Part shown: positions 27,459 to 63,455 of the stretch, in pieces
Layout of the letters: each line of letters opens with the position of its first letter
Position numbering within the stretch: position 1 is the first letter of the stretch
The notes under the pieces: model-generated
Database searches by the model: none
The model's input: the letters and a program-made list of their open reading frames with translations, nothing else
Told to the model about the DNA's origin: nothing
Source: an uncultured Acetobacter sp.
GTDB taxonomy: Bacteria; Pseudomonadota; Alphaproteobacteria; RF32; CAG-239
Assembly (NCBI GenBank): GCA_964416205.1
Contig: CAYQDC010000001.1
Span: 7,822 to 71,821 of the forward strand
DNA: 64,000 bases
Reading direction: 5' to 3'
Program-made: the position numbers and the translations under genes

Positions 27459-28082
27459 TTAGACCGCGTCCTTTATCTGCTTTGCTGACGCGTCAGAAAA
27501 ATGTGTTTTGATATATCTGTCCAGCGTCCCCCAGCAACAATTCGTCAGGCGGGCAATTTGTTTTTTGGAAACGCCTTCATCAAGAAGTTTTTTTATTTCA
27601 TCGTGACGTTCTTTTAGTTTGGAATGCGTAAATCCAAATGGTCTGCCAAGGTGTCTGCCCTCATCTTTAAGCCGTTGCAGAGAATTTTTAGTACGTTCCG
27701 AGATAAGCTGGCGTTCAATTTCACTGGCCAGAGAAAAGGCAAAAGCAAGGACTTTAGATTGAATATCCGCTCCCAGGCGGTAATTTTCTTTCAATGTCCA
27801 CACCTGACATTCTCTTTGCAGGCAAGTCTGCAAAATCCCCATAACCTCAAGCATATTCCTGCCAAGACGAGATATTTCCGTTGCAATCAGAGTATCACCT
27901 TTTTTCAGACGTTTTAACACTCTGTTTAGTTTTCTGTCCTGTAGTTTTTTACGAGAAGAAATCACTTCTTCTGCCCATTTATCAATAACAATATTATTCC
28001 GTTTAGCAAAGAGTTCTATTTCGTGACGCTGGTTAGCGCAGGTTTGCTGTTCGGTACTTACCCTAATATATCCATAAATCAT
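27459..28082 (-). CDS. serine recombinase (resolvase/invertase family)
   Basis: MIYGYIRVSTEQQ catalytic Ser region, resolvase core and C-terminal HTH; 207 aa. Confidence 0.85.
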   Translation of the reverse strand: MIYGYIRVSTEQQTCANQRHEIELFAKRNNIVIDKWAEEVISSRKKLQDRKLNRVLKRLKKGDTLIATEISRLGRNMLEVMGILQTCLQRECQVWTLKENYRLGADIQSKVLAFAFSLASEIERQLISERTKNSLQRLKDEGRHLGRPFGFTHSKLKERHDEIKKLLDEGVSKKQIARLTNCCWGTLDRYIKTHFSDASAKQIKDAV

Positions 28083-28085
28083 TTC

Positions 28086-29174
28086 TTATCCTTGTTTAAA
28101 AACATCATCCATAACCGAGATAACCCTGTTATTAAATGGATGGGCGTATTTAAGCGTTGTTTTGATATTTGAGTGCGCCAGCGAGTCTTTGACCAGGCGC
28201 AAATCTCCGGTAGAATTATATATCCATGTAGCGTGCGTATGGCGCAGGGTATGAATGGTATAATGTGGAAGTCCGGCGCGTTTAAGCGCATTGTTCCACG
28301 CTTTATTTATCCTTTTTACCGGCATTCCCTTATAGGTAAATATATAATCAGAGTTATGGGGCAGGGTATCAAGTAATTCCTTTAAGACCGGAAAAATGGG
28401 TTTGCGCTGCATTTTTCCACCCTCAAATTTACAGTCTTTTACTCTGATGATAATTTCATCGCCGACAATATCCGTCCATTTCAGATTTAAGATAGTTGAG
28501 ATTCTTAAGCCGGTATAAATAGCGGTTAAGATTATCGGCTTAATGTGCGGGGCGGAATTATCAACGATTTTGTTTACGGTTTGCCAGTCCGCAAAGTATT
28601 TCACATTTTCCGCCGGTTCTTTACGCATAAATTGCCTGATGTTAATATCCGGCAAATTTATTTTATGTAACCGGCAACGTGAAAAAACAGCCGACAACAA
28701 AGCCAGATAGCGGTTGATAGTGGCGTTTTTTCTGTTTTCAGCGTCTTTTGCCCTTATAAAAGCGGTAATATCCTCAACAGTTAAATTTGATATATATTGT
28801 TGCGAATTAAAGTAAGATATTAAGTTTTTCAGTTTATTAAAAGTATCTTTGGCATTGGCGTGCAATTTACCCACTTCGTCCCAGAATAAACCAAAAGCAT
28901 AATCTACAGTTACCTCTTTTAGTTGAGCTGTTTTGAATCTCGCTTGCTCGATAATGTCCTGAAGTCTTTGGTTTGCATATTGCAAAGCCTGATTGCGGTC
29001 TGTTGTGTGAGAGCTTTCGCGAATGAAAACTCTTTGTCCGCTGACGATGGTTGAAATCGTGATATGGTAGATTTTTCCCCTTTTAACGAGCTTGACAGGG
29101 GCTTTGTTGTATTTTGCAGACATTGTTCTACACTCCATTGGGGAATTAAGTATGTTGTACCGGATTGAATACAC
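28086..29174 (-). CDS. int: tyrosine integrase (phage integrase family)
   Basis: C-terminal catalytic region HTLRHTHATW...LAHSNIKTTLKYAH (R..HxxR..Y); N-terminal SAM-like domain; true start may be internal Met (~29123). Confidence 0.9.
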   Translation of the reverse strand: MYSIRYNILNSPMECRTMSAKYNKAPVKLVKRGKIYHITISTIVSGQRVFIRESSHTTDRNQALQYANQRLQDIIEQARFKTAQLKEVTVDYAFGLFWDEVGKLHANAKDTFNKLKNLISYFNSQQYISNLTVEDITAFIRAKDAENRKNATINRYLALLSAVFSRCRLHKINLPDINIRQFMRKEPAENVKYFADWQTVNKIVDNSAPHIKPIILTAIYTGLRISTILNLKWTDIVGDEIIIRVKDCKFEGGKMQRKPIFPVLKELLDTLPHNSDYIFTYKGMPVKRINKAWNNALKRAGLPHYTIHTLRHTHATWIYNSTGDLRLVKDSLAHSNIKTTLKYAHPFNNRVISVMDDVFKQG

Positions 29175-34614: not shown

Positions 34615-35280
34615 TTACCCCACTTTGCGCACGTGATAGATAATTTTGCCGATAACGTCTATATCCTGATAATTCTCTTTTTTAAAAGCTTCATATTGCG
34701 GATTATCCGCTTTTATGGTGGCCGAGTTGTCAAACGGGTTAATCTGAATACGTTTAATCATCAGTTCCTTGCCAACCGCCAGCAGATACAGCCCATCCGA
34801 GGTCGGCTCTTTAAAAGATATATCCACCCACACGACATCACCGGGGTATATGGTCGGCATCATGGAATCACCGATTGCCTTGATAATTTTGATATTTTCC
34901 GGGGCGGACGAGGTTAATTCGCGCAACGCCGGCATCGTCATCATATATTTGCCGATAACATTTTCGGTAAAATTTTCCCAACCATTACCACAACACGCCG
35001 AAACATCCAGTACATCTATGGACACGATATTCTGCTGTAATTTCAGTTTTGCAGAAACATCGCCTAAAGGTAAATCAGTAAGTTCCTGTTCATCTACATT
35101 TAAAAGAATGGCCAGACCTTTGCGAAATTGCTCATCTAATCGTTTGGGGGATTTTTCTTTTACAAATTTTTGCAGGTAAGAAGAATTTTTCCCCAGCTGA
35201 AGTGACAGTGAATTAAAAGACAAGTTGCGTTCAGCAACTAATTGTCCAACTCTTTTTTTTACATTTTCAATAGTATCCAT
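34615..35280 (-). CDS. cI: CI-like repressor (HTH_XRE + S24 LexA-like peptidase)
   Basis: N-terminal HTH; C-terminal GDSMMPTIYPGDVVWVD (Ser) and LMIKRIQ (Lys) S24 motifs. Confidence 0.85.
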   Translation of the reverse strand: MDTIENVKKRVGQLVAERNLSFNSLSLQLGKNSSYLQKFVKEKSPKRLDEQFRKGLAILLNVDEQELTDLPLGDVSAKLKLQQNIVSIDVLDVSACCGNGWENFTENVIGKYMMTMPALRELTSSAPENIKIIKAIGDSMMPTIYPGDVVWVDISFKEPTSDGLYLLAVGKELMIKRIQINPFDNSATIKADNPQYEAFKKENYQDIDVIGKIIYHVRKVG

Positions 35281-40395: not shown

Positions 40396-40788
40396 TTATA
40401 AATCAGTGTTTACCGCGTCCGTATCCTTTTTCAAATCAGCTATCAACTCGTCCACCGTGTCAAAATGACCAAAAACGCGCCCTGCTTTTATGTCGGCTTC
40501 TACATTAGCCATTGCCTGCGCAATAAACTCTTCTTCTGTATTTAATACACATTTCCCGTTATGCCATATCTCACTGGAATCAATATCTGTGTCATCTGTC
40601 CAGGTTATACCATAACCACCACAATCAATCCTGCCTTTGGCAAACAGCCCCGGAATATCCTTTAACGGTTTAAATGCTTCGTATTTATCAAACAGCGGTT
40701 TCATATCATACAGTTTTTGCACGCCACTTACAAATTCGGCTTTTATGATAAAATCCGGCAAAAAGTTTATTTTCTTTATTTTAAACAT
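40396..40788 (-). CDS. DUF2442-like protein with C-terminal extension
   Basis: N-terminal pattern KI..V.....L...F.nG......L.PL.........F..V.V.--I.W.-...D...-..W resembling DUF2442; AGGAGG RBS before ATG 40788. Confidence 0.55.
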   Translation of the reverse strand: MFKIKKINFLPDFIIKAEFVSGVQKLYDMKPLFDKYEAFKPLKDIPGLFAKGRIDCGGYGITWTDDTDIDSSEIWHNGKCVLNTEEEFIAQAMANVEADIKAGRVFGHFDTVDELIADLKKDTDAVNTDL

Positions 40789-40799
40789 CGTCGGCCTCC

Positions 40800-41054
40800 T
40801 TATGTAAGCGGTGGCAATACCTTGAATTGTTGCGATTGCCACATTTCCAGCAATTCTTTTTTATGAATCTCCATCCACTCGATAACCATTGCAGCAGCCC
40901 TTGCTGGCAAATCCCCCTCAAGCATTTTCAGGCTTTGAATATCAAACAGGGCGCTGTATTCTCCGTAAATAACATGCACGTGTGGCGGATTATGCTCCGC
41001 CCCCAACAGAAACATTTTTATCACTATTCCATAAAATCGCGCAATCACCGGCAT
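40800..41054 (-). CDS. DUF4160-like protein
   Basis: EHNPPHVHVIYGEYSALFDIQ...LPARAAAMVIEWMEIHKKELLEMW matches DUF4160 signature; AAGGAG RBS; 11 nt upstream of DUF2442 gene. Confidence 0.6.
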   Translation of the reverse strand: MPVIARFYGIVIKMFLLGAEHNPPHVHVIYGEYSALFDIQSLKMLEGDLPARAAAMVIEWMEIHKKELLEMWQSQQFKVLPPLT

Positions 41055-41342: not shown

Positions 41343-41789
41343 ATGGACACGATAGAACTGTATTTGCGCGGGCTTTCAGACAAACCCCAAAAGCCCTTAA
41401 CAACTATGGAGATGTATTTACAGGGAGTTAAAATCGAACCGCCAAAGCCTCGTACGGTTATTGAATGTTATTTAGCTGGCGTCGCCTGTGACGAGTGGCA
41501 GGAAGAAGACCACCCGCGCGATGATGACGGTAAATTCAGCAAAGTCAGAGGAAAAAACGCAAAATCGGTTGCCAAAAACGCCGGAAAGTGTAAAATAAAA
41601 AGACGACGCCGGATTGTCAGATTATCCGAAAAAGAGTTCGCCGAAGTTCAGAGCGCTTTTATGACTGATGTTACTAAGGAACAACGAAAGCAAAGTGTTT
41701 TGAAAAAATACATCGGCAATTATATTTACACCGGGATTTTGCGTGAAGACGGCACCAGAGATATTGTTAAAAGGATAAAAATAAAATGA
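41343..41789 (+). CDS. 'HPRD' module protein copy 1: N-terminal ELYLRG/KP.KP repeats, DHPRDDDGKF linker, basic C-terminal domain
   Basis: Paralogous to 59725..60240 and to the C-terminus of the portal 43951..45762. Confidence 0.5.
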   Translation: MDTIELYLRGLSDKPQKPLTTMEMYLQGVKIEPPKPRTVIECYLAGVACDEWQEEDHPRDDDGKFSKVRGKNAKSVAKNAGKCKIKRRRRIVRLSEKEFAEVQSAFMTDVTKEQRKQSVLKKYIGNYIYTGILREDGTRDIVKRIKIK

Positions 41790-42040
41790 CGCTGGATTTT
41801 AAGGCAATAATAAACAAAGCAATTTCTGAACCTGTTGGTCTGGAATTATATAATATCTTGCGTGATATATGGAATGATGAAGAATTTTTGGCCTTAAATC
41901 TTTATGAAATGGATACGCCGGAAAAAAAACAGAAACTGATTGGCTATATTCGTCAATATGATATTACAAGCCCCAGCGATGTTAATTTGCTGGCAGATTA
42001 TATTGATGACGGAATAGAACCGGAGCTTGAAGAAGATTGA
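41786..42040 (+). CDS. small acidic protein, family member 1 (84 aa), coupled to the copy-1 module gene
   Basis: ATGA overlap with upstream stop; homologous to 45763.., 46043.., 60240.. (shared ..LY.IL.D.WN..EF.. and ..KKQKLI.YI..Y.......D.NLL..YI.DG.EPE.EED). Confidence 0.5.
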   Translation: MTLDFKAIINKAISEPVGLELYNILRDIWNDEEFLALNLYEMDTPEKKQKLIGYIRQYDITSPSDVNLLADYIDDGIEPELEED

Positions 42041-42726: not shown

Positions 42727-43947
42727 ATGGCGGGATTATCAAAATTGATAGCACCGCCGTTTTATGCAATTCATTTAGATATTAAGAACGGCGGACATAC
42801 TGAATACTGGCTAAAAGGAGGCCGTGCGTCCACAAAGTCAAGTTTTATCAGTATTGAAATAATCTTAACGCTGATAAAATCACCGGGAACGCACGCCGTT
42901 TGCTACCGTAAAGTCGGCAACCGTCTGGAAACCTCGGTATATAACCAGATTAAATGGGCGGTGAGTGCCTTGGGTTTAATGCCTTATTTCAGGTTTTACA
43001 AAAACCCCCTCAAGGCCGAATATACCTTAACCGGGCAACACATCCTTTTCTTAGGCCTGGACGATCCGGAAAACTCGCGTTCGATTAAACTGCCGTTTGG
43101 TTACATCAAACAACTGTGGTTTGAAGAGCTGACCCAATATGACGGTATGACGGAAATCCGCAACGTTATGCAGTCCGTTATCCGTGGCGGTGATGATTGT
43201 CTGATTTATTATTCCTACAATCCGCCGATAGAGCCGAACAACTGGGTAAATATTGAAGCCAAAACCGACAACCCGGCGCGCCTTGTTCATCACTCTACTT
43301 ACGAGGGCGTCCCGGCCGAGTGGCTGGGCAAGTCCTTTTTTGTTGGTGTTGAACACTTAAAAAAGACCAACGAAAGAGCCTACCGCCACGAATACTTAGG
43401 TGAAGAAGTCGGCACCGGCTTATCGGTATTCACTAACATAGAATCCCGGATATTGCCGGAAGAAGAAACCCGACATTTTGACAATATATGTGAGGGTATC
43501 GACTGGGGCTATTCTGTTGACCCGTTTGTGTGGCTTAAAATGCACTATGACCGCAAACGCCAGACCGTTTACATTTACGAAGAGATTTATCAGGTTGGCC
43601 TGTCCAACCGGGAATCTATAGATCTTGTCAGAGCCGTCCACGATGACGACGCGATAATCATTGCCGATTCTGCCGAGCCAAAGTCTATATGGGAGTTTGC
43701 CGACGCTGGTCTGCCTGTTGAGCGAGCCGAAAAGGGCGCTGGTTCAGTCAGATTCGGCATAAAGAAGTTACAGGGTTTGGAAAAAATCGTCATCGACCCG
43801 CACAGATGCCCAAACGCCCTGCGGGAGTTTACCGGCTATGCTTACGAGGTGGACAAACAGGGCAACCCCAAAGCCAGTTATCCTGATAAGGACAATCACT
43901 GTATCGACTGCGCCCGCTATGCGCTGGAACAACAATTTGAGTATTAG
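42727..43947 (+). CDS. terminase large subunit (PBSX/Terminase_3-like)
   Basis: N-terminal ATPase (GGRASTKS Walker A-like), C-terminal nuclease with acidic residues; 406 aa. Confidence 0.8.
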   Translation: MAGLSKLIAPPFYAIHLDIKNGGHTEYWLKGGRASTKSSFISIEIILTLIKSPGTHAVCYRKVGNRLETSVYNQIKWAVSALGLMPYFRFYKNPLKAEYTLTGQHILFLGLDDPENSRSIKLPFGYIKQLWFEELTQYDGMTEIRNVMQSVIRGGDDCLIYYSYNPPIEPNNWVNIEAKTDNPARLVHHSTYEGVPAEWLGKSFFVGVEHLKKTNERAYRHEYLGEEVGTGLSVFTNIESRILPEEETRHFDNICEGIDWGYSVDPFVWLKMHYDRKRQTVYIYEEIYQVGLSNRESIDLVRAVHDDDAIIIADSAEPKSIWEFADAGLPVERAEKGAGSVRFGIKKLQGLEKIVIDPHRCPNALREFTGYAYEVDKQGNPKASYPDKDNHCIDCARYALEQQFEY

Positions 43948-43950
43948 ACA

Positions 43951-45762
43951 ATGAAGTTTTTTAAGAAAAAAGCCCCCAAAGCCCCGGTTGTTATGCCAAA
44001 ACCGAAAAAAGAAGAGCGCGCTACCCCTTTTCATCCGCAGATGACCAGACCGAGCCTTATGGCGGGCTTTGACGCCAGTATCAGACGCCGGGCTGATGAA
44101 TTTGTTGTCGAGCAGGTGAATATCGGTGGCAACATCCTGAATATCGCCACCGACGGCAAATTGTCCCAATCTGCCCGCAACGCTCTGGCACAGGCGTATG
44201 AACCGAATATTGCCGGGCAGGAGATTATTTATACCTATTTTGCCAGACAGAGCTTTATCGGCTTTCAGAACTGCGCTATCCTGTCGCAGAACTGGCTTAT
44301 CAACAAAGCCTGCATGCAACCGGCAGTTGACGCCGCCGCCATTGCTTATGACATTACCTTAAACGATGACGAAACCACCGACGAGGACAACCGTATTCTT
44401 GACGAGCTAAAGGCCAAAGCCACCTTTACGCAGAATTACGATATTATCGGTATATGCCGGGAATTTGCCGAGAAAAAGCGCCGTTTTGGTCAGGCTCTGT
44501 GTCTGCCGGTTGTTGATGATGTCGATTATTCCCTGCCGTTTAATATAGACGCCGTCGGCCACCACACCTATAAGGGAATGGTAAACATCGAACCGCAGTG
44601 GATAACGCCTGTTTTAGACGGCAGAGCGTCAAACGACCCGACCTGTCGCCGATTCTACAAACCGACATATTTTCGCCTGCCAGACGGACAGATTGTCCAC
44701 CACAGTTGGGTGCAGTTTGCCACGTATGGCAATATTCCCGATATTTTGAAGCCAACCTATTATTTTGGCGGTTATCCGTTGCCACAACTGTTATATGAAC
44801 AGGTTTACGCCGCCGAAAAGACCGCCAAAGAAGCCCCGATGCTGGCACAGTCCAAACGCCTGAACTACATGGAGGGCAACCTAAACGCCTATATTACCAA
44901 CGCTGATAAGATGGACAAAGAAATCCGCCTTATGTCTTGGCTTAGGAATAACTGGGGCTGGATGCTGGTAGGGCGCGATCAGAAACTTGGACAGCTTGAT
45001 ACCAGCTTAACCGATGTCGATTCGGTTACAATGCTAAGCTATCAGATTGTCGCCGCCATTGCCGGTATGCCGTCCGCCCGCTTACTTGAAACTTCGCCCA
45101 AAGGCTGGCAGTCTTCCGGCAGTTACGAGGACGAAAACTACAAAAAGCTGTTGTTATCCATACAGGAGCAGGATTTTGTCCCGATTCTTAATCGTCATTA
45201 CCGCCTGCTGACCAAATCCGAATACGGCAGAAGCTACGAATACAACTGCGTATTTACCCCGATTGACACGCCGTCGGCAAAAGAACTTGCGGAGATTAAC
45301 GAAATCAACAGCCGGACCAACGCCGCTTATATCAGTGCTGGGGTTGTATCTGCCGAAGAAGTCCGCAACGCCCTAAGACAGGACGAAAACAGCGGTTTCA
45401 ATGCCTTATCCGAAGAAATGGAAGCAGAAGAAGACCTTTCCGGCCTGTTTGGTGAGGAAGAAGAACAGCCCGAAGAGCCAAAAGACGAACCAGCCCTTGA
45501 CGCGTGGCAGGAAACAGACCACCCCCGGGATAAAGACGGCAGGTTCTCTTCCTCTGGTAGCAATTCCACAGGGAGCAAAAAAACAGTTGTCAAACTCTCA
45601 AAAAAAGAATATGGTAAAATCACGCACGAATTAAACACCAACCTCACAAAAGAGGAAATAAACAAAGGTTATACTGAACGATATATCGGCAACCGAAAAT
45701 ATTATATTTTTATTAACGGATTTAATGACTATAAAATTCTTGATTGGGAGAAAATAAAATAA
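43951..45762 (+). CDS. portal protein with C-terminal 'HPRD'-module extension
   Basis: 603 aa, follows terminase; C-terminal ~115 aa (from ~45409) = acidic linker + DHPRDKDGRF + basic domain homologous to copies 1 and 2. Confidence 0.7.
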   Translation: MKFFKKKAPKAPVVMPKPKKEERATPFHPQMTRPSLMAGFDASIRRRADEFVVEQVNIGGNILNIATDGKLSQSARNALAQAYEPNIAGQEIIYTYFARQSFIGFQNCAILSQNWLINKACMQPAVDAAAIAYDITLNDDETTDEDNRILDELKAKATFTQNYDIIGICREFAEKKRRFGQALCLPVVDDVDYSLPFNIDAVGHHTYKGMVNIEPQWITPVLDGRASNDPTCRRFYKPTYFRLPDGQIVHHSWVQFATYGNIPDILKPTYYFGGYPLPQLLYEQVYAAEKTAKEAPMLAQSKRLNYMEGNLNAYITNADKMDKEIRLMSWLRNNWGWMLVGRDQKLGQLDTSLTDVDSVTMLSYQIVAAIAGMPSARLLETSPKGWQSSGSYEDENYKKLLLSIQEQDFVPILNRHYRLLTKSEYGRSYEYNCVFTPIDTPSAKELAEINEINSRTNAAYISAGVVSAEEVRNALRQDENSGFNALSEEMEAEEDLSGLFGEEEEQPEEPKDEPALDAWQETDHPRDKDGRFSSSGSNSTGSKKTVVKLSKKEYGKITHELNTNLTKEEINKGYTERYIGNRKYYIFINGFNDYKILDWEKIK

Positions 45763-45995
45763 TGGAAGAAGATACTTATATAGAAACAAAAAACGCGCCA
45801 AAGCTTCGCGAACTTCTGTCTGAATATTCATTGAACAAAAAGGACATAGATATTCTGTTATATTTTCTGCCCACCGAGGAAGCCCGGCAAAAAATGATAG
45901 ATTTCATTGAACAGGAAAAACCGGCAACGACGAAAGAGATTGCACGAAAAGTTCCTGAATTTGGAAATTTAAGACTGGTCGTCCCTGAAGATTAA
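45763..45995 (+). CDS. small acidic protein, family member 2 (77 aa)
   Basis: GGGAG RBS; ATG 1 nt after portal stop. Confidence 0.5.
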
Positions 45996-46042
45996 AAACA
46001 AAGGCTTTAATGAGTATGAGATAATCGGAAAGGTGAAAATAC

Positions 46043-46276
46043 ATGGTGTCGATTAAAAGGGAAGACGTCCCCACGGAAACCGGGAAGAAACTTTATGATT
46101 TGCTGGTTGATTCCTGGAATAACCCTGAATTTATCCGGGGAACTCTGGCAATTCTTAGAGGCGACGCCAAAAAACAGGAGTTAATTGACGCTATAGAGGC
46201 AGGAATGACTGACTCTGACGATATTATTAGTAAATCTTGGGAAATCGCCTTTGGAGAAAAGTTGCCCGGTGATTAG
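46043..46276 (+). CDS. small acidic protein, family member 3 (77 aa)
   Basis: Homologous to member 1 (LYDLLVDSWNNPEF vs LYNILRDIWNDEEF). Confidence 0.5.
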   Translation: MVSIKREDVPTETGKKLYDLLVDSWNNPEFIRGTLAILRGDAKKQELIDAIEAGMTDSDDIISKSWEIAFGEKLPGD

Positions 46277-46461: not shown

Positions 46462-47277
46462 ATGTCTGAAAATGAATTAACATCAACCAGGCTGAACCCG
46501 AACGCCGGTATAATGGCATGGTATGTTCGGGAGTTGCGCAAACTCACTCACGCAATGACGGCGGAATGTCGGGCGCGGTTAAAGGAAATCTATGCCACCG
46601 GCTATCCTGACATTGCCTTTGATGAAAGTATTTCAAGTCAGGCCAGAATTGCCTTAAATGAATTACTGGAAAAATACGGCGATAAGTTCAGCAGGCGGGC
46701 GAAAACCCTTGCCCGGGATTTGGTAAACCGCACCAACCGGTATTCAAACAATCAGGTAAACCGGGCAATAAAAGATATGTTAAGCGATAAGGCAAAAGAT
46801 TTTACCCTGTCGCTGTCGGTTACCTCTGCCGAAAAAAAGGAAATCTTTAAAGCGCTGATTTTTGAAAATGTCAGTCTGATTAAGTCGATTCCCAACGACT
46901 ACTTTAAGCAGATAACCGGCGCCGTTGCCCGATCTATTGAAAACGGCGAGGGTATTCGCTGGCTGGCCAGACAGTTAAGGAAAACCGGTTATTCAACCGA
47001 ACGGCGGGCGCAGTTAATCGCGCAGGATCAGACCCGCAAAGCCTACAGCTGTATCAACCTGCGCAATTTTCAGGAGGCAGGTATTCGCAAATTCAGGTGG
47101 TTACATTCGGGAGGCTCTGCCAACCCGCGAGAATACCACAAAAACGTATTAAGTGGCAATGTTTATGACATTAACGACCCGCCGATAATCGATAAAAACA
47201 CCGGCGAGCGGGGTTTCCCCGGGCAGTTGCCTTATTGCCGGTGTGTGATGTGCGCGGTGTTATCTTTTGAGGAATAG
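46462..47277 (+). CDS. head morphogenesis protein, Mu F / SPP1 gp7 family
   Basis: Phage_Mu_F-like core (...IAQDQTRKAYSCINLRNFQEAGIRKFRWLHSGGS...). Confidence 0.75.
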   Translation: MSENELTSTRLNPNAGIMAWYVRELRKLTHAMTAECRARLKEIYATGYPDIAFDESISSQARIALNELLEKYGDKFSRRAKTLARDLVNRTNRYSNNQVNRAIKDMLSDKAKDFTLSLSVTSAEKKEIFKALIFENVSLIKSIPNDYFKQITGAVARSIENGEGIRWLARQLRKTGYSTERRAQLIAQDQTRKAYSCINLRNFQEAGIRKFRWLHSGGSANPREYHKNVLSGNVYDINDPPIIDKNTGERGFPGQLPYCRCVMCAVLSFEE

Positions 47278-47280
47278 AAA

Positions 47281-48432
47281 ATGCAGGCGGAAGATAAAAA
47301 AACAGTAGATTACAACGATTTCTGGTATATCAAAAACAACCCCCTCTCTAAAGTGGGGGTTTTTCCATACCTCGGACGCCAGATAAGCCCGGAGCTTGAA
47401 CCAGATCGGATTTATCAGGTTTACCGCCCCGAAGAGGAGCTGTCCAAACCTGAAACGCTGGAGACCTTTAAGCTTATCCCGATAACTGACGAACATACGA
47501 TGTTGGGGACAAAAGACGGTATGACCCCGGCCGAAGAAAAGGGCGTCCACGGTGTAACCGGCGACAATCCGGAATTTAAGGACGGATTTATAACCTGCGA
47601 CATCAAGATATATTCAGAAACATTAAAAAAAGAGATTGAGAACGGCAAAAAGGACTTATCAGTCGGTTATTTCTGCCGTTACGAACTTTTGCCCGGAGAA
47701 TACAAAGGGCAACCATACGACGCTGTCCAGAGAGACGTCAGAGTAAACCATATTGCTTTGGTTGACGAGGGGCGTATGGGTAAAGACGTCAGGGTAATGG
47801 ACAGCAAAGATTTAACGCAACTTACAAATGAGGAGTTAAAAATGGAAAAAAACAAAGCGTGCGATGAAGACAGGCGCGATATTATGCGTGCAGCCGACGC
47901 TATTGCTATGAAACCCGCCTCTGAATTTAAAGGAGGCGAAGAGGAAAAATTCCGCACCCTTACGGCTAAGCTGGGAGAACTGGCTAAACCCTCTGTAACC
48001 GGAGCAGCCGACGAAAAACCTGAACCGGAAGAAGAGAAAAAGGAAAAGCCGGTGGAGGATAACGACGACGATGCGGAAAAAACCGAAGACGAAGCCCCGG
48101 AAAAAGAAGAGGCAGAGGACGACGACGATGAGAAAGAAGAGGAAAAGGAAGAGAAAAAATCCTTTTCTATGGACGAGGCTGTCAGATATTTTGGCAGACG
48201 CGACGCTCTCGTTGCCAAAGTCCGCCCGCTTGTCGGTGATAACGTCAATTATGGCAATATGACGATTGCGGAGGTTATCAGATATGCGTGCGATAAGCTC
48301 GACATCAAAAATTCAGAAGACGCTCTTGATGGTTATATCAAAGCGGTAGGCCGTACTGCGCGAAAAGCCTCTGCCTGGGATAGCTATGAACAGAGCGACA
48401 CCATTAAACAGTATTTGAAAGGGAGTAAATAA
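47281..48432 (+). CDS. head scaffold/protease-like protein with poly-acidic region
   Basis: 383 aa; E/D/K-rich stretch typical of scaffolding proteins; position between MuF and capsid. Confidence 0.4.
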   Translation: MQAEDKKTVDYNDFWYIKNNPLSKVGVFPYLGRQISPELEPDRIYQVYRPEEELSKPETLETFKLIPITDEHTMLGTKDGMTPAEEKGVHGVTGDNPEFKDGFITCDIKIYSETLKKEIENGKKDLSVGYFCRYELLPGEYKGQPYDAVQRDVRVNHIALVDEGRMGKDVRVMDSKDLTQLTNEELKMEKNKACDEDRRDIMRAADAIAMKPASEFKGGEEEKFRTLTAKLGELAKPSVTGAADEKPEPEEEKKEKPVEDNDDDAEKTEDEAPEKEEAEDDDDEKEEEKEEKKSFSMDEAVRYFGRRDALVAKVRPLVGDNVNYGNMTIAEVIRYACDKLDIKNSEDALDGYIKAVGRTARKASAWDSYEQSDTIKQYLKGSK

Positions 48433-48434: not shown

Positions 48435-48917
48435 ATGGTACAGACTGTTGTAAATCAGTTTCTGGCAAAGGGTGTTGAGGGCGATTACGCTGACGATTCC
48501 CCACGCCGTGAAGCTGGATTCATTCTTACCGGTACTAGTAGCGCGTCCGCTAAAGTTGGTGTAGCTTATACACAAAGCACAGCGGGCGACAATTTTGCTG
48601 TAGTTGGCGGTACTGGTACTTTTCTTGGTATTTGTGTTAATTCCAAAACTTTTGCCAACTATAATGGACTGACCGCCGGGCTTGAGTTGCCAGACGGCAT
48701 TCAGGGCGGTTTGTGTTCTTTTGGCCACATATTCGTAAAATCCGCGACTGCTTTTGCCCCGGGTTACATTGCCGCCTTTAATCAGACCACTGGTGCAATA
48801 TCCGCTTATTCGAGTTCAACTTCTATTGGCACTGGCGAAACCCAGATTGCTAACGCTAAATTTATTAAGTATTCAGGCGAAGCTGGCGAAATCGGCGTGC
48901 TGGAACTTGGAAATTAA
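48435..48917 (+). CDS. head structural/decoration-like protein (160 aa)
   Basis: G/A/T/S-rich small protein immediately before major capsid gene. Confidence 0.35.
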   Translation: MVQTVVNQFLAKGVEGDYADDSPRREAGFILTGTSSASAKVGVAYTQSTAGDNFAVVGGTGTFLGICVNSKTFANYNGLTAGLELPDGIQGGLCSFGHIFVKSATAFAPGYIAAFNQTTGAISAYSSSTSIGTGETQIANAKFIKYSGEAGEIGVLELGN

Positions 48918-48930: not shown

Positions 48931-50028
48931 ATGAAGAAAACAGAAATACGTTTGGAACTTGAACCGGGACAGGTAAACAAGTTCAATTTTGGAGAGTTTG
49001 CCAGAGTTTCCGAGAAAGACCTGTACAATTTGGGTGTCAGTATGGATGAGGCTGTAAAAGCTAACGTTATTCACAGCAATATATACGCTATGGACGACAA
49101 CATCGCCCTGCAGACCACTTCCAGCATCACCAACCCTGTACAGTTCTTTCAGTATTGGGAACCGGAAGCGGTGGAGGTTGTAACCTCTGCTTTGAAAATT
49201 GACGACATTGTCGGGCGCAGTATTGCCGGCAGTTTTGAAGATGAAGAAGTCGTTGTTACCGTTATGGAACGTACCGGCTCGGCACATCCGTACAGCGACA
49301 CGGCCAACATTCCGCTTTCAAGCTGGAATCAGAACTTTGTAACCCGCTCAATCTGTCGCTTTGAAGAGGGGCTTGAAGTTGGCTATCTTGAAAGCCTGCG
49401 CGCGTCGCGTATGCGCATTGACAGCCACCGGGAAAAAGCCGCCGCAGTTGCGCAGTCCTTAGCGATTGAACACAACAATATCGGCTTTTATGGTTATGCC
49501 AACGGCACTAACAAGACTTACGGTATCTTAAACGACCCGAATTTGCCGGCCTATCAGACTGTAGCTGAGGGCGCTTCTGACAGTACAAGCTGGAGCGGTA
49601 AAACATTTTTGGAAATCACCTCTGATATTATCACCGGTGTTTCGGCTCTGGTTAATCAGCTTGGTGGTTTGTTTGACCCGATTGCTGACGGCTTCACCAT
49701 TTCGCTTGCGCTTGAAAGCACACAATACCTGAACACGATGAACGATTTGGGTACAAAATCCGTTTCACAATGGATTAAAGACACTTATCCCAACGCCCGC
49801 ATTGTTGCCGCTGTTCAGTTAAACGGTGCTAACGGTGGCGAAAACGTGATGTACATTCACGCCGATCGCGTCAATGGCAAACCGGTTGTCAAACAGTATG
49901 TACAGGACGTTTTGCGCCTTGTAGGTGTTGAAAAACGCGCCAAAGTATCGGTTGAAAGTTATGCGTCAGCAACTGCTGGTGTCATCGTAACCCAGCCGAT
50001 TGGTTTTGTCCGTTATTCGGGCATTTAA
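48931..50028 (+). CDS. major capsid protein (candidate)
   Basis: 365 aa, strongest RBS/codon usage of the module, position after scaffold and before connector genes. Confidence 0.55.
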   Translation: MKKTEIRLELEPGQVNKFNFGEFARVSEKDLYNLGVSMDEAVKANVIHSNIYAMDDNIALQTTSSITNPVQFFQYWEPEAVEVVTSALKIDDIVGRSIAGSFEDEEVVVTVMERTGSAHPYSDTANIPLSSWNQNFVTRSICRFEEGLEVGYLESLRASRMRIDSHREKAAAVAQSLAIEHNNIGFYGYANGTNKTYGILNDPNLPAYQTVAEGASDSTSWSGKTFLEITSDIITGVSALVNQLGGLFDPIADGFTISLALESTQYLNTMNDLGTKSVSQWIKDTYPNARIVAAVQLNGANGGENVMYIHADRVNGKPVVKQYVQDVLRLVGVEKRAKVSVESYASATAGVIVTQPIGFVRYSGI

Positions 50029-55109: not shown

Positions 55110-55225
55110 ATGAGTTAAAAACCATTTACACCCTTGAAGATGCGATGAACATCTTTGAGGCTGTCTCCATTACAAAATACAACGAATATCTTATCGCTTC
55201 CGCATCTTTGAAAGAGAAAAGGTAA
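55007..55225 (+). CDS. -1 frame extension (GT-like) of tail assembly chaperone
   Basis: Overlapping ORF in -1 frame; GGGTTTA heptamer at 55067-55073 in X XXY YYZ register of the upstream frame. Confidence 0.4.
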   Translation: MGFLEQGSLPCRIESFRNIDGFTGQIIASGHATLNELKTIYTLEDAMNIFEAVSITKYNEYLIASASLKEKR

Positions 55226-57294
55226 TGGCCGGAGTACTAGACATATTTACGATTGCGTTTCAGTCTGACGGATTGAAAGACTTTGAGACGGAATTAAAAC
55301 GCAACGAAGCCGAACTTGCCAGATATGAAAAACAGGTTGCCGAGACTGAAAAAAAGATGAAGTCTTTGGCCGACGCCGGCAAGTCCGACACCGTTGAATA
55401 TAAAAAGCTGGCAACCGAGCTTGAACAGGCTAAACAGCAGGTAAAGTTATTTGGCGACAGTGTAACCAGACTTAAAGGCGATCCGCAGGCATCTGTTTTG
55501 GAATTACGCCAGAAGTTTTCAAGTCTGGTTACTACCGTTGGCAAAATAGCCACTGTCGGCCTTGCCATTAAAAAAGCCCTTAACTTTGCCGAACAGGGGC
55601 AACAGCTTGACTGGCTGGCACAAAAAGCCGGTATAACCGCAGAAAAACTGTCCACAATCGGCAATGCCGCCAGAGCTTTTGGTGGCACCACCGAGGGTAC
55701 TGCCGGCACAATGGAAAATCTGCGCAGTCAATATCAGAGCCTGCTAATGGGCGAGGGTGGTGGAGCTTTAGAGCAAGCCACTTTCAAATACGGGGTGCAA
55801 ATATCGTCAGACCCCGCACAGATGTTGGAAAACATCGCCAAACGTATGGAAACCCTGAAATCAGACGCTGAAAAATGGGATTTGGCCAAAACTCTTGGCC
55901 TTGACGAGGGGACGACCCGGCTGTTAATACAGGGGCTTGATAAATACCGCGCTTCGCTGGAAAGAGCTTCCAAATATAAGATATTTACGCAGGACGACAT
56001 TAACCGTATGCGCGAATATCAGCAGATTTCCGGCGATATCCGTATGGGTATTGACAGCATTTTCAACAGTATTTACCGCGCTATGCTCCCGGCATTGACC
56101 GAAGTGGCAAAAGTCATTCGTAACATTACCGACTGGCTGGCGACCCATTCCGGTATGACCAAAATACTGGCGACACTGGCCGCCGTTGCTGTCGGCATTA
56201 TGTCCGTTACCAGTGGCGTCAAACTGTTAAACGTGGCGTTTAAAGTTCTGGCTGGCAATCCGGCCGTTCTTATGTGGGCAGGAATTGTCGCTGGCATTAC
56301 GGCCGTCATTGCCGTTATTCAGGATATATACACGTGGCTAAACGGCGGTAAAGCCGTTTTTGGTGACTTTTACCAGTCTGTAGCTGATAATTTCAGCGCC
56401 GCCCTTGAGTTTGTACGTAATTTCTGGGACGGCTTGACCGATGTCCCGGCCGACGCTTTTGAATGGCTGTTTACACAGGTTGATGAAATAAAAGCGACAT
56501 TTAACCAGTTAAAAGAATTTTTTACTGATTTATGGAACGGCTTTGGCGACGGCGTTAAAACTGCCTTTCAGGGCATTATTGAGTGGATTAAAAACAAACT
56601 GGCCTCGCTTGTGGACTGGATGCCCGAGCGCCTGAAAAAATGGCTTGGTCTGGAGAATTTTACCACCGATTCGCCCAAAGACCCTGACGACAGCAGTTAC
56701 ATCTCACCATACAGAGAAAACGAAAGAACCCCCGCCGACCGCACCTATTTTTCACCAGATACCGATAGAACCAGCGACGCCAGCCGTTATATCTCACCCT
56801 ACAGCGAAAACGAGTCCACCCCCGCCAACACTTCGTATTTTTCACCAGACAGCGAAAACGAGAGAACTCCCGCCAACCCCTCTTATTTTTCTTCGGACAG
56901 AGAAAACGAGCCGACACCCCAAACCCCCTCGTATTTTTCTCCAGACAGAGAAAAAGAGAGAACGCCCAAAACCCCCTCGTATTTTTCTCCAGACAGAGAA
57001 AAAGAAAGAACGTCTAAAAACAACACCTACATTTCACCATGGGAGGCGGCAGCCCGCGGGCAGACAATGTTGATATACGCCAACCAGTCGCCATTAAACA
57101 GCGCACCGGCGGGGGCGGTATCAAATTACTACTCAACGCAGGCCACCAACCAGACAATGATTGACAATACTAAGACCTACAGTCAGAGCAAAAGTTTTGT
57201 CATTCAGAATATGACCGTTAAGACGGACAATCCAAAATCCTTTATGGAAGAGGGTATGCAAACGGCGGTAACTTTTGACAATGGATTTGAATAA
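55225..57294 (+). CDS. tail tape measure protein
   Basis: 689 aa, coiled-coil N-terminal half, hydrophobic middle segments, C-terminal tandem repeats. Confidence 0.8.
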   Translation: MAGVLDIFTIAFQSDGLKDFETELKRNEAELARYEKQVAETEKKMKSLADAGKSDTVEYKKLATELEQAKQQVKLFGDSVTRLKGDPQASVLELRQKFSSLVTTVGKIATVGLAIKKALNFAEQGQQLDWLAQKAGITAEKLSTIGNAARAFGGTTEGTAGTMENLRSQYQSLLMGEGGGALEQATFKYGVQISSDPAQMLENIAKRMETLKSDAEKWDLAKTLGLDEGTTRLLIQGLDKYRASLERASKYKIFTQDDINRMREYQQISGDIRMGIDSIFNSIYRAMLPALTEVAKVIRNITDWLATHSGMTKILATLAAVAVGIMSVTSGVKLLNVAFKVLAGNPAVLMWAGIVAGITAVIAVIQDIYTWLNGGKAVFGDFYQSVADNFSAALEFVRNFWDGLTDVPADAFEWLFTQVDEIKATFNQLKEFFTDLWNGFGDGVKTAFQGIIEWIKNKLASLVDWMPERLKKWLGLENFTTDSPKDPDDSSYISPYRENERTPADRTYFSPDTDRTSDASRYISPYSENESTPANTSYFSPDSENERTPANPSYFSSDRENEPTPQTPSYFSPDREKERTPKTPSYFSPDREKERTSKNNTYISPWEAAARGQTMLIYANQSPLNSAPAGAVSNYYSTQATNQTMIDNTKTYSQSKSFVIQNMTVKTDNPKSFMEEGMQTAVTFDNGFE
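56695..57040 (+). repeat. ~8 tandem degenerate 39-42-nt repeats encoding SYFSPD(R/S)E(N/K)ERTP... within tape measure
   Basis: Repeated peptide units visible in translation (SYISPYRENERTPADRTYFSPDTDRTSDASRYISPYSENESTPANTSYFSPDSENERTPANPSYFSSDRENEPTPQTPSYFSPDREKERTPKTPSYFSPDREKERTSKNNTYISP). Confidence 0.6.
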
Positions 57295-57848
57295 TGGCTT
57301 TTACAACGGCAAGTATAATTCAGGCAGTTAATATCGTTTTGCTGGTAGGCAACAGCACGCAGGACACATCAAAATTCAATGTCTGGCAGGATGAAACACC
57401 GGTTTTATCAGGGCTTGGCGTTGTCCGGGTAACTGTTGAAGACCGCGCCAAACTGTTTGAACACCCGATTGAAACCGGGGCGGTAGTAACCGACCACGAG
57501 ATATTTGACCCGGCGCAGATTAACATTCAGGCATATATCTCAATCAGCGACACATCAACTTTAACCGAGCTTGAACAGCTGTATCTGGCTGGCACGGTGC
57601 TAAAAGTAAGAGCCGGCAACAAGATTATTGAAAAAGCGGTAATCTCTGCCCGCCCTTTTGAAATCTCGGCTTCGGTATTTGATAAAACGCTATACAACAT
57701 AAGTTTTAAGGAAGTCCAGACCGTAACTTCCACTTACGTTGCTATGAGTTCGGCCTCATCGGCGTCTGATGTATCAACAGTTAATTCCGGCGTTGTATCC
57801 GGCACATCATCAAGCTGGCTTTACTCGGCCTTAAACGGAGATTCCTGA
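57294..57848 (+). CDS. hypothetical tail/baseplate protein (184 aa)
   Basis: ATGG overlap with TMP stop. Confidence 0.4.
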   Translation: MAFTTASIIQAVNIVLLVGNSTQDTSKFNVWQDETPVLSGLGVVRVTVEDRAKLFEHPIETGAVVTDHEIFDPAQINIQAYISISDTSTLTELEQLYLAGTVLKVRAGNKIIEKAVISARPFEISASVFDKTLYNISFKEVQTVTSTYVAMSSASSASDVSTVNSGVVSGTSSSWLYSALNGDS

Positions 57849-57850: not shown

Positions 57851-58198
57851 ATGTCATATTCCATATCTCTTAATTCATCTTATGCCAATCAGGAGTTTGA
57901 TGTTCAGATTGACGGCCTGGATAAGGAAATTCACGTCAAACTGCATACCGCGTTTGATGTAACCTATATGTCGGTAACTGTCGATAACGAGCCACTGGGA
58001 GAAACCGGCGACGATACCGTTGGCTTTCCTTTTCTTTGCTTTCCCAATCAGAAAGTGATTCCCTACGCCTATATGCAGGAAAAGCTCGGCGGTAATTTTG
58101 TATTCGTAACCGAAGACGATAATTTCCCGAATTACGAGAATTTTGGCACAACCTGCAACCTGTATTTTGTAACCTTGGATGAAATGAATGAAGAATAA
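57851..58198 (+). CDS. hypothetical baseplate protein (115 aa)
   Basis: position. Confidence 0.4.
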   Translation: MSYSISLNSSYANQEFDVQIDGLDKEIHVKLHTAFDVTYMSVTVDNEPLGETGDDTVGFPFLCFPNQKVIPYAYMQEKLGGNFVFVTEDDNFPNYENFGTTCNLYFVTLDEMNEE

Positions 58199-59030: not shown

Positions 59031-59038
59031 GGTTGACA

Positions 59039-59728
59039 ATGGCAGAAGTTAATTTACCGGCAGTTAATCCGTCAGACGTGCGAACGCAGGCGGGTATTTT
59101 GGAGTTCACGCAAAAGAAGTTCAAAAGCACGATTGAAAAGGTTATTCCGGCGCAGGTTATAAGTTATGATCGCGCCACCAACCGCGCCGAAGTGCAGATT
59201 TTGCCCCTGGACATAACCTCAACAGGTGAAAAGTTGCAACGTCGTCCCCTGCTTAACATTCCGATCCTGACCTTAACCGGTGGCGGTTTTGTGTTCAGTT
59301 TACCGGTAAAAGCGGGCGATGTTGGCTGGATTGTCGCTTCCGATAAGGATATTTCGGTATTTAAACAGACTTTAGCCGAATACACGCCCAACACTTACCG
59401 CCGGCATAAATACGAAGACAGCTTTTTCATACCCGATAACTTAAACGGCTTTACCATTGCCGAAGATGACAACGAAGCCGTGCTGTTATCTTCTGTTGAC
59501 GGCGTAACCAAAATCAGCCTTAAAGACGGCGTCGCCACCATAACCGCCGCGTCGGTTATCGTCAACGGCGAAACCACCATTAACGGCAACACCACTATTA
59601 ACGGCGATTTGAACATATCCGGCACTGCCACGGCCACAACAGAAGTCGTCGGTGGCGGTATAAGCTTAACCGGACACGTCCACGGTGGCGTAACCGGTGG
59701 CAGTGGCACAACAGGAACACCACAATGA
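59039..59728 (+). CDS. baseplate spike (P2 gpV/gp5-like) protein
   Basis: OB-fold-like N-region then beta-helical repeats (TTINGNTTINGDLNISG) and apex LTGHVHGG HxH motif. Confidence 0.55.
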   Translation: MAEVNLPAVNPSDVRTQAGILEFTQKKFKSTIEKVIPAQVISYDRATNRAEVQILPLDITSTGEKLQRRPLLNIPILTLTGGGFVFSLPVKAGDVGWIVASDKDISVFKQTLAEYTPNTYRRHKYEDSFFIPDNLNGFTIAEDDNEAVLLSSVDGVTKISLKDGVATITAASVIVNGETTINGNTTINGDLNISGTATATTEVVGGGISLTGHVHGGVTGGSGTTGTPQ

Positions 59729-60240
59729 ACACAATAGAATTATACTTGCGCGGGCTTTCAGATAAACCTGAAAAGCCCCTCACAACTATGGAACTGTATT
59801 TGCGCGGACTTTCAGACAAACCAAAGAAACCCCTCACGACTATGGAGATGTATTTACAGGGCATTAAGGTTGACCCACCCAAGCCCCGCACCGTTATCGA
59901 GTGCTATTTAGCAGGCGTCGCCTGTGATGAGTGGCAGGAACAAGACCACCCCCGCGACGACGACGGCAAATTTACTTCCTCTGGCCGTAGCTCCACAGGG
60001 CGCAAAAAACCGGTTGCAAAAAGCATCATAAAGTCTAAAATAAATGCAAGACGGCAAAAAGCCGTTTCCCTGTCTCCCCGGGAATATGGTCTTTTACATC
60101 ATGGTCTTAACGAGTATATCGCGGGAAAAGATATTCCCAAAGGTAAAATTATGCAATGGTGGACAGGAGAATATTGTTACGAGGTTTTGATAAATGGATA
60201 TAATGATTATGTCCCATTGATGAAAAGGAAAATACGTTAA
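59725..60240 (+). CDS. 'HPRD' module protein copy 2 (4 N-terminal ELYLRGLSDKP.KPLTTM-type repeats, DHPRDDDGKF, basic C-domain)
   Basis: ATGA overlap with spike stop; >80% nt identity to copy 1 over the N-terminal part. Confidence 0.5.
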   Translation: MNTIELYLRGLSDKPEKPLTTMELYLRGLSDKPKKPLTTMEMYLQGIKVDPPKPRTVIECYLAGVACDEWQEQDHPRDDDGKFTSSGRSSTGRKKPVAKSIIKSKINARRQKAVSLSPREYGLLHHGLNEYIAGKDIPKGKIMQWWTGEYCYEVLINGYNDYVPLMKRKIR

Positions 60241-60473
60241 TGTATGAAAAAGAGCTGGAAGAGGCGTTGCATACAGCGTTTCAAACAGACGCGGAAGCCC
60301 TTGGGTATGAAGATGTTTTTGTTAAGGGCGGGTTGTTGGTATGCGACACGGATGAAAAAAGAAAAAAACTGCTTGACCTTATCAACCGGTACGATTTGAA
60401 CGTCAGCGATATAAATCTGGCTATTGTATATATAAACGATGGCTTAGACCCTGAATTTGAAGAAGATGCCTGA
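60240..60473 (+). CDS. small acidic protein, family member 4 (77 aa)
   Basis: 1-nt overlap (TAATG); C-terminal EKRKKLLDLINRYDLNVSDINLAIVYINDGLDPEFEED aligns with member 1. Confidence 0.5.
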   Translation: MYEKELEEALHTAFQTDAEALGYEDVFVKGGLLVCDTDEKRKKLLDLINRYDLNVSDINLAIVYINDGLDPEFEEDA

Positions 60474-63248: not shown

Positions 63249-63393
63249 GGCATAAAAAAGCCCGATGCGACAACACCGGGCTTCCTGTTAAATGAAAGGA
63301 TTATGTAATGATAATAAACTTATTTTATCAACTAAACAAATAGCAAAACAGCAAGCACTTGTCAAGCCCTTTTTTTATCAATTACAAAAATAC

Positions 63394-63422
63394 TTGACAA
63401 TGCTACAATATTGTAGTGTAAT
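63394..63422 (+). promoter_or_regulatory. sigma70 promoter TTGACA-17-TGTAAT with perfect 14-bp palindrome CTACAATATTGTAG in the spacer
   Basis: -35 63394-63399, palindrome 63403-63416, -10 63417-63422; 33 nt upstream of HicB-like ATG. Confidence 0.5.
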
Positions 63423-63455
63423 TTTTTTGCAAAAGAGGATAAAGCGACCATAAAT

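Follow-up and report, generated by a model that had tools for sequence, protein, structure and literature searches.

The 64,000-nt stretch of contig CAYQDC010000001.1 (assembly GCA_964416205.1, positions 7,822 to 71,821; hereafter the window) from an uncultured Acetobacter sp. carries three copies of a module that consists of a conserved junction motif, a basic linker and a small C-terminal domain, each followed directly by a gene for a small acidic protein. We propose, with a probability of roughly 0.6, that these modules are phage-delivered cassettes of carrier, delimiter and cargo, in which the cargo would be held inactive or packaging-competent by its cognate acidic partner. Several observations support this proposal: domain and partner constitute two protein families, the domain occupies the C-terminus of its carriers, the two genes are paired, the same slots hold other effector domains in related phages, and at the portal gene one cassette has displaced another. 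A preliminary description of this DNA had compared the arrangement with polymorphic toxin/immunity systems, and the architecture of such systems was borne out, with a C-terminal cassette, a conserved junction to virion proteins or leaders, an effector slot, an acidic partner belonging to each cassette and a displacement that left an orphan.

Modules, acidic partners and gene pairing

The three modules that had been claimed are all present as open reading frames (ORFs) of the kind described, and their alignment gives an invariant W-Q-E-x-D-H-P-R-D-x-D-G-x-F and a common C-terminal domain. They share a single layout, in which a W-x-E-x-x-HPRD-x-DG-K/R-F motif (the delimiter) is followed by a basic linker and then by a domain of 57-58 aa, referred to here as the C-domain. 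A tblastn search of the window with the 41343 protein returned matches at 59779-60231 (E 4e-46) and 45493-45711 (E 8e-12), and because of these E-values and the sizes of the families described below, chance similarity among the modules is excluded.

Module 1 is a standalone gene on the forward strand. Its leader (41343..41495, +) contains three tandem 18-aa repeats, the delimiter WQEEDHPRDDDGKF occupies 41496..41537 (+), and the remainder (41538..41789, +) comprises a K/R-rich linker (41538-41615), a 57-aa C-domain (41616-41786) of the subtype 'FMTDVT...GILREDGTRDI' and the stop codon. The second module lies at the end of the portal protein (within 43951..45762, +), where an acidic linker leads to the motif (45505-45546) and the C-domain (45589-45759). 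Module 3 is again standalone, and the start of its gene at 59725 overlaps the stop of the baseplate spike gene (58991-59728) by ATGA; a leader of four 18-aa repeats (59725..59931, +), detected at the DNA level as a tandem repeat of period 54 at 59746-59855, precedes the delimiter WQEQDHPRDDDGKF (59932..59973, +) and a final part (59974..60240, +) made up of a basic linker, a 58-aa C-domain (60064-60237) and the stop. The acidic stretch said to stand before each motif was found in the portal only, and in the two standalone proteins three to four tandem 18-aa repeats with the consensus T-I/M-E-x-Y-L-x-G...P-x-K-P-x-T stand in its place. This repeat leader is presumed to be a carrier or targeting part. 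A fourth full module (P0003, 140 aa) is encoded on the same 75,740-bp NCBI contig, outside the window. Among the standalone paralogs (41343, 59725 and P0003), leader and motif are identical at 40-41 of 45 residues (~90%), and the part after the motif is 30-49% identical.

In agreement with the preliminary description, each module is followed by an overlapping acidic gene with a product of 77-84 aa, starting at 41786 (ATGA), 45762 (TAATG) and 60240 (TAATG); the second of these starts had been given as 45763 and is corrected here. Partner 1 (84 aa, 41786..42040, +) and partner 3 (77 aa, 60240..60473, +) overlap the stop of their modules, by ATGA and TAATG, respectively, while partner 2 (77 aa, 45762..45995, +), a member of a divergent subfamily, overlaps the portal stop by TAATG. 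The fourth acidic gene (77 aa, 46043..46276, +) had been thought to have no upstream module; in fact its start is overlapped by 14 nt by the final 21 codons of a C-domain (45991-46056). That all four acidic proteins are clearly homologous holds by BLAST for the products of 41786, 60240 and 46043 (41786 against 60240, E 1e-9; 41786 against 46043, E 1e-4). It does not hold in that form for the 45762 protein, which gave no match in pairwise BLAST against the other acidic proteins of the window and is related to them by profile only, scoring 29.5 bits (E 2e-11) against a family profile from which its own subfamily had been excluded; intermediates such as P0097 connect it to the other partners. A profile search gathered 94 clusters of this partner family, with lengths of 50-102 aa and a conserved E-K-K/R-Q-K-L-I motif, and none of the 94 has a Pfam match or a functional name. 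The AlphaFold2 (AF2) model of partner 1 is a five-helix bundle with a predicted local distance difference test score (pLDDT) of 93, in which no DNA-binding antitoxin fold is recognisable.

Across all fetched loci, an ORF of the partner family starts at -86 to +21 nt from the stop of the C-domain ORF in 43 of 44 cases, the commonest junction being an ATGA overlap, and 33 of these loci (34 ORFs) were retrieved with the C-domain alone. The lone exception (L025) has a small overlapping ORF that shows the sequence pattern of the partner and scores below the search threshold. At another locus (L021) a partner gene accompanies a frame-disrupted C-domain. Median isoelectric points (pI) over 41 non-redundant pairs are 9.3 (domain) and 4.5 (partner). 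The pairwise identities of the two families correlate across the 41 pairs (Mantel r 0.47, a value reached in 0 of 2000 permutations), a co-variation as expected for what would be cognate or co-inherited partners. Multiple copies per phage recur, as judged from a Schwartzia prophage on the metagenome-assembled genome (MAG) contig JBQNAL010000001.1 (L029, L043), where three C-domain/partner pairs lie within ~12 kb, two of them standalone and the third at the end of the portal; each has 'HPRQPDG[KR]F'.

A separate observation concerns a conserved protein of 131-147 aa ('MTDYDFIRQLLKTIAEEK...' / 'MKVDYVFLKSLLNEM...'), which is encoded after the acidic partner at two loci (L004:10259-10702 and L008:1844-2239) and after a portal-PBECR1 fusion at a third (L001:14425-14835). 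It has a weak DUF2513 match only, and may be a further cargo-associated factor.

Displacement at the portal and exchange of cargo

The origin of the orphan partner was apparent from a human-gut contig (L046), whose portal is 80% identical to that of the window over the 384-residue query. The C-terminus of the L046 portal ('...DEWKEEDHPRKENGQF...VDNISKEEYGKVMHELNNNLTKEQRKKKVIKKAIGDYEYIVQNNGFNEYKIIRKVKIDGID*') is an intact C-domain, which a partner gene overlaps by 14 nt, and MuF then follows; the partner is orthologous to the 46043 protein of the window, with 51 of 77 residues identical. In a blastn comparison the two regions match at window 44096-45424 and L046 2467-3795 (74%), at window 45992-46238 and L046 4078-4324 (76.7%) and at window 46485-47300 and L046 4511-5326 (71.5%), and no match was found between window 45425-45991 (567 bp) and L046 3796-4077 (282 bp). 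As this 567-bp segment is unmatched between collinear flanks, a new cassette of linker, motif, domain and partner has replaced most of an older C-domain. The incoming cassette (45425..45991, +), which consists of the acidic linker, the motif, the C-domain and partner 2, left behind a remnant of the displaced C-domain, namely its last 21 codons and stop ('IKNKGFNEYEIIGKVKIHGVD*', 45991..46056, +; 14 of 21 identical to L046), and the 46043 gene as an orphan partner. Relative to L046, the breakpoint of this recombination does not coincide with the motif and is ~80 nt upstream of it. The orphan has 77 aa against the 102 aa of its ortholog (L046:4129-4437) and diverges from it after residue ~70; it could be in decay, or just a shorter version.

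The range of carriers was taken from a search in which a profile of motif and domain was scored against 1.84 billion representatives. This gave 794 matches at E <= 0.001, and among the best 150 of these, plus earlier word-index matches, 120 proteins contain the C-domain. The C-domain was found on Phage_portal_3, on Phage_Mu_F, on MuF together with a zincin-like peptidase (P0223, L025) and behind short leaders. The MuF gene of one related phage (L008:8565-9589) was also seen to carry an intein (PF14890 Intein_splicing, from precomputed annotation).

In related phages the same positions, behind the same junction or one equivalent to it, are filled by other effector domains. Portals are fused to PBECR1 in L001 and L008 and to LPD13 in L004, and the portals of L004 and L008 agree almost completely up to 'GSGNFNHAGRPGKVGGSAEEGGKSQK', after which the one continues into LPD13 and the other into PBECR1. 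Solo PBECR1 and PBECR3 proteins are encoded upstream of terminase genes in related phages, and in L009 a PBECR1 protein lies inside the baseplate cluster. A phage-specific leader can stand before different cargo. The leader 'MSLLLKITRxGKTYSVDLTPFIYGTKSENAWEESKHPRDKDGKF' precedes PBECR3 in L001, and a near-identical leader precedes a C-domain in P0006; likewise, the cargo behind a leader of L008 and behind the 'LRRYLGL' leader of L009 is either PBECR1 or a C-domain. In L047, the portal of which is 51% identical to that of the window, 'LDAWNEEDHPRNEQGEF' is followed by a PBECR3-like domain that is 51% identical to the PBECR3 protein of L001 (E 5e-49). The portals of the window, L046 and L047 end, accordingly, in one of two C-domain subtypes or in a PBECR3-like domain. 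A cultured phage, Pseudomonas phage Orimi01, has a portal (L045:1944-4055, PP179326.1, annotated as 'hypothetical protein') that is an ADP-ribosyltransferase (ART) fusion, with Phage_portal_3 at 100-453, then 'FDENKHPRSDDGKFGS', and ADPrib_exo_Tox at 545-681 (E 5e-19). Its HPR motif reads 'FDENKHPRSDDGKF', and no small partner gene stands ahead of the next head gene. Cultured examples such as Orimi01 came only from a search with the motif alone.

The obligate pairing would also fit a reversal of roles, in which the C-domain would be a dock on virion proteins and the acidic partner the delivered effector, for instance a DNA-mimic anti-restriction protein. Such a role would suit the strong acidity of the partner (median pI 4.5), its confident fold (pLDDT 93) and its conserved E-K-K/R-Q-K-L-I, and enzymatic cargo is found in the same slots without any partner. 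However, the C-domain sits in the exact position of known effector domains, the protease-type junction that precedes it in many relatives is better suited to a cargo that is released, and in the window the orphan partner has been retained after loss of its dock. We therefore consider the reversal unlikely.

The location of the carriers raises a further alternative, namely that the basic domain binds the end of the packaged DNA or aids its ejection, in the manner of a pilot or end-protecting protein, with the acidic protein serving as an assembly chaperone that keeps the domain from binding nucleic acid too early and no toxin being involved. The domain is found on portal and MuF, at the site of DNA entry and exit, the identified carriers are all virion proteins, 'minor head protein and DNA pilot' is among the PHROG families for proteins like MuF, and a convincing catalytic signature is absent. 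A structural or DNA-handling part would not, however, be expected in three to four divergent copies per prophage, of which one lies in the baseplate cluster and another ahead of the terminase genes, and the rapid turnover of cassettes, with an orphan left behind and with RNase-like and ART domains interchanged in the same place, would be unusual for a core structure. Close relatives, moreover, do without the domain on their portal (L047). This explanation as a whole seems to us improbable, though a chaperone role for the acidic protein is possible.

The C-domain, the delimiter and a proposed mechanism

The C-domain lies no more than 15 residues from the C-terminus in 118 of the 120 representative proteins that contain it. 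Its near-invariant positions are L6, E10, G37 and Y41, and K34 and K56 are conserved. A genome scan gave 34 C-domain loci, mostly in Oscillospiraceae, Ruminococcus, Acutalibacteraceae and Lachnospiraceae, with Erysipelotrichales, Schwartzia, Gastranaerophilales, Bacteroidales and Olsenella among the other hosts. Both families are common in prophages of gut and rumen Clostridia and are present in other phyla. A tblastn search of the C-domain against 50,697 deposited phage genomes found nothing, blastn of the region against cultured phage genomes gave no relatives, and no loci were confirmed when IMG/VR was scanned with either the leader or the partner profile.

For the 41343 cargo, the AF2 model shows a pLDDT of 80-88 over the domain and an alpha-alpha-beta3 arrangement, with helices at 53-65 and 69-73 and strands at 76-81, 84-90 and 96-103. 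Toxins dominate the top of the structural matches with a plausible root-mean-square deviation, PfiT, RelE, YoeB, YxiD-CT and EndoU being among them, and longin and roadblock folds were also matched. The best Foldseek results were ParE (E 0.23, probability 0.80) and ParE1 (probability 0.82), and no Foldseek match was significant. A RelE/ParE-like fold is suggested as a lead, in the sense of a weak structural guess. Membership of the BECR fold (Barnase-EndoU-ColicinE5/D-RelE), the fold of metal-independent RNases, is not established for the C-domain, and no Pfam PBECR match was obtained among 110 family members. Sequence searches of the PDB with three profiles returned nothing, and the sole match in a scan of PHROGs was a weak one to the C-terminal part of the portal family phrog_15528. 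Homology to barnase and barstar was rejected, none having been detected in any search.

The weak resemblance to RelE and ParE, together with the presence of two small overlapping genes, might be read as an ordinary type II toxin-antitoxin (TA) addiction module of the prophage that has nothing to do with the virion. The likeness is one of predicted topology, two helices and then a three-stranded antiparallel sheet, and ParE, RelE, HigB and YoeB lead the weak matches. In contrast, the scores are not significant, the C-domain is ~30 residues shorter than RelE/ParE toxins, and sequence or profile similarity and a conserved catalytic set are both lacking. The 'toxin' is, furthermore, fused in frame to portal or MuF and always at the C-terminus, its gene comes first, the downstream partner is all-helical and has no recognisable DNA-binding domain or antitoxin fold, and the genes lie inside late structural operons. 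On the strength of the in-frame virion fusions and the gene order the type II TA module was rejected, and we regard it as very improbable indeed.

The delimiter recurs well beyond the proteins that contain the C-domain. In the search of representatives, proteins of 1,000-7,334 aa also came up in which the motif part of the profile is repeated, with 4-19 copies each; the giants among them include P0106 (7,334 aa), P0108 (5,313 aa), P0117, P0125 and P0128. As a regular expression, '[WF][DSE]Ex[x][HQ]PR[DG]xxG[KRQ][FW]' recurs every few hundred residues in the seven giants inspected, three of which are those scanned with Pfam below, and in the giant polyvalent proteins the first copy lies 14-44 residues from the N-terminus. 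Three giants were scanned with Pfam and contained MuF, ADP-ribosyltransferase, Zeta toxin, 2'-5' RNA ligase, ART-PolyVal, C39 peptidase and InPase domains; judged by this domain content they are true polyvalent proteins, and in them the motif falls at domain boundaries, not in domain cores. No description of the HPR-type motif was found in the searchable literature, string searches gave no relevant paper, and a text search of the polyvalent-protein paper (PMC5512222) and of the MuF paper discussed below found no mention of an HPR-type delimiter.

An HPRD-type motif stands upstream of the C-domain in ~66 of the 120 representatives. In at least 12 of the 120, plus several looser variants, a different junction, (D/N)(I/L)Q(L/F)F-A(K/S)K, is found 2-7 residues before the C-domain; it also occurs in the MuF fusions of L014 (L014:1981-3393, where the junction reads 'KINIQLFARKPSDFPTIK') and L015 (L015:3710-4249) and in short ORFs of L011 and L012. 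The Firmicute protease Prp recognises MLxx(D/N)LQ(F/L)F'A(S/H)KK and cuts between F and A, its substrates being ribosomal protein L27 and the capsid and scaffold proteins of phage 80alpha (PMC9405229, PMC5744158). Many MuF fusions of the family thus have an L27/80alpha-like motif upstream of the C-domain, which suggests that the host protease Prp could release the cargo of these fusions. They differ from the processed 80alpha proteins (PMC5744158, PMC9405229) in that their sites are internal, and the modules of the window use the HPRD motif instead. Since HPRD and Prp-like junctions stand at the same position, the HPRD motif may also be a processing site; alternatively, it may be a docking or loading peptide.

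Taken together, these data lead us to the following scheme for the cassettes. The carrier, which is the portal C-terminus or the repeat leader in the window and can also be MuF in relatives, would place the protein in the virion. The delimiter, in its general form W-x-E-x-x-HPR-D/G-x-x-G-K/R-F/W, would separate it from the cargo, which would comprise the basic linker and the 57-aa domain of a new family. The partner, the acidic five-helix product of the overlapping gene, is probably translated by coupling, and would bind the basic domain and so keep the cargo inert or packaging-competent in the producing cell. The cargo domain would then be built into the particle on its own carrier, would probably be cut free at the delimiter, and would enter the next host cell with the DNA to act on a nucleic-acid-related target. 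Recombination would move cassettes from one phage to another, and from site to site in the same phage. Of this scheme, we infer from the sequences that the partner binds and neutralises the domain and that the cargo is packaged, cleaved, delivered and toxic.

Several findings count against this scheme. With regard to the cargo, the near-invariant polar residues amount to one Glu (118 of 119 sequences) and one Tyr (119 of 119), which gives no clear catalytic signature; where the BECR helix would have its His, 59 of 119 sequences have S, 51 have H and 4 have R; comparison with four PBECR1 domains by hhalign gave the C-domain a probability of 0.6%; and some C-domains are not basic, with a net charge down to -5. 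Neither the C-domain nor the partner belongs to a family in Pfam, NCBIfam or PADLOC, as searched with the module and partner proteins and 110 members, and the partner is a generic five-helix bundle whose PDB neighbours are only generic helical proteins. No Rhs, LXG or CdiA carrier was seen among the Pfam matches of the top 150, in which all carriers that could be identified are phage virion proteins or short leaders, so the C-domain is not a general-purpose toxin domain. PBECR3 in L047 and ART in Orimi01 occupy the same portal slot without a partner gene; delivered effectors therefore do not as a rule require immunity, and the partner could be a chaperone or itself cargo. As to release, the window has no Prp-like motif, known Prp sites lie within the first ~15 residues, so that internal cutting is an extrapolation, and we know of no protease for the HPRD motif.

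A broader version of the scheme, which we put forward only tentatively and think less probable than not, is that the HPR-type motif is a general processing or packaging signal for every phage-delivered cargo unit and that the 57-aa domain is a miniature virion-delivered toxin. The motif is seen in Firmicute, actinobacterial and proteobacterial phages. If this were true, a partner expressed from the prophage would also protect lysogens from the injected cargo of related phages.

Prophage setting and relation to known systems

The window consists of chromosomal genes followed by an integrated temperate myovirus prophage of the E217/Pam3 type. A ClpB-like chromosomal gene is found at 20720. Next to it the prophage has a serine resolvase (27459-28082, -), a tyrosine integrase (28086-29174, -) and an S24 repressor (34615-35280, -), as befits a temperate phage; the resolvase directly adjoins the integrase at the prophage boundary (27459-29174, -). 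The head genes run from TerL (42727-43947) through the portal protein (603 aa, 43951-45762, +; Phage_portal_3 at residues 106-454, E 7e-57), MuF (46462-47277), a DUF2213 protein (47281-48432), which is a candidate for the prohead protease, and a cement protein (48435-48917) to the major capsid protein (48931-50028), and the window's own MuF has no C-terminal extension. The baseplate cluster includes a Dit-like gene (57294-57848), a Pam3 gp18-like gene (57851-58198), a gp41-like hub (58188-59030), a spike with a GpV apex (58991-59728) and Baseplate J (60871-62319). Pair 1 is placed ~370 nt ahead of a small ORF that comes before TerL, pair 2 at the portal C-terminus and pair 3 after the baseplate spike gene, which it overlaps by ATGA. 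A scan for promoters and terminators around the loci gave counts about equal to those of shuffled sequence.

Some neighbouring features were noted in addition. On the opposite strand, module 1 is closely preceded by a DUF4160/DUF2442 gene pair (40396-41054, -), and such a pair is also found beside the repressor region of a related phage (L001:2503-3014). A HicB-like antitoxin (63456-63851, E 3e-17) comes after a LydA-like holin (62940-63248), and between them a 53-aa ORF (63292-63453) occupies the position expected for the HicA toxin gene. Tandem DNA repeats at 56686-57019 (period 48, ~4 copies; also period 90) lie within a 689-aa protein (55225-57294), which, judged by position, is probably the tape measure.

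Among known systems, loci for contact-dependent inhibition (CDI) and Rhs proteins have junction motifs (VENN, PxxxxDPxGL) before a variable C-terminal domain and an immunity gene directly downstream. Poole et al. in 2011 reportedly described CdiA-CT/CdiI and Rhs-CT/RhsI cassettes with orphan modules. There too, displaced cassettes leave 3' toxin fragments and orphan immunity genes, as is seen at 45991-46276. In contrast to those loci, delivery by a phage particle is predicted here, not by a secretion system, and the junction motif is unrelated. Colicin nucleases with their Im proteins, and barnase with barstar, combine a basic nucleic-acid-targeting domain with a small acidic and helical inhibitor of ~80-90 aa, the gene of which comes immediately after; the likeness to the modules is an analogy only, as no search gave any homology.

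The closest comparisons are with MuF polymorphic toxins and polyvalent proteins. MuF polymorphic toxins (Jamet et al. 2017, PMC5576092; Zhang et al. 2012, PMC3482391) likewise have a virion carrier, which is MuF, encoded beside the portal, as well as a variable C-terminus and a downstream ORF presumed to confer immunity, and in relatives of the window's modules the C-domain stands on bona fide MuF C-termini with the partner gene downstream. All reported cases of these toxins are in temperate phages or prophages (PMC5576092). The modules of the window differ in that, instead of MuF, the portal and a short repeat leader serve as carriers; their cargo is ~57 aa and the portal extension, motif and linker included, ~85 aa, below the 100-aa cut-off of PMC5576092; the cargo matches no known toxin family; and there are three to four copies, one of them in the baseplate cluster. 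Effectors on portal or MuF, or solo, are likewise described for polyvalent proteins and PBECR fusions (Iyer et al. 2017, PMC5512222), and their packaging and injection have been predicted. Relatives have PBECR1, PBECR3 and LPD13 in the slots that the C-domain occupies here, and the delimiter of the window is the recurrent junction of the giants. Unlike polyvalent proteins, each window protein has a single cargo domain, not 2-15, and the window cargo has an obligate partner gene, whereas the portal PBECR3 and ART fusions that were examined have none. With a carrier, a variable C-terminus, a downstream ORF and a temperate phage as their setting, the modules would fall, on their sequence features, into the class of phage polymorphic effectors.

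The architecture of MuF polymorphic toxins, the fusion of effectors to portal and MuF and the existence of solo effectors are already known (PMC5576092, PMC5512222). What is new are the two families, the three to four sites per prophage including the baseplate cluster, the repeat leader, and the HPR-type delimiter as a recurrent junction. The two families, a 57-aa cargo domain and an acidic five-helix partner, are without a match in any domain library tested, and they widen the view of phage polymorphic effectors, with cargo on the portal and on short leaders and not on MuF alone. The delimiter motif offers a concrete handle on the processing or loading of polyvalent and virion-borne effectors. 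If the domain is a toxin, it would be among the smallest delivered toxin domains, and a motif that does act in loading or processing could be harnessed to bring proteins of choice into phage particles.

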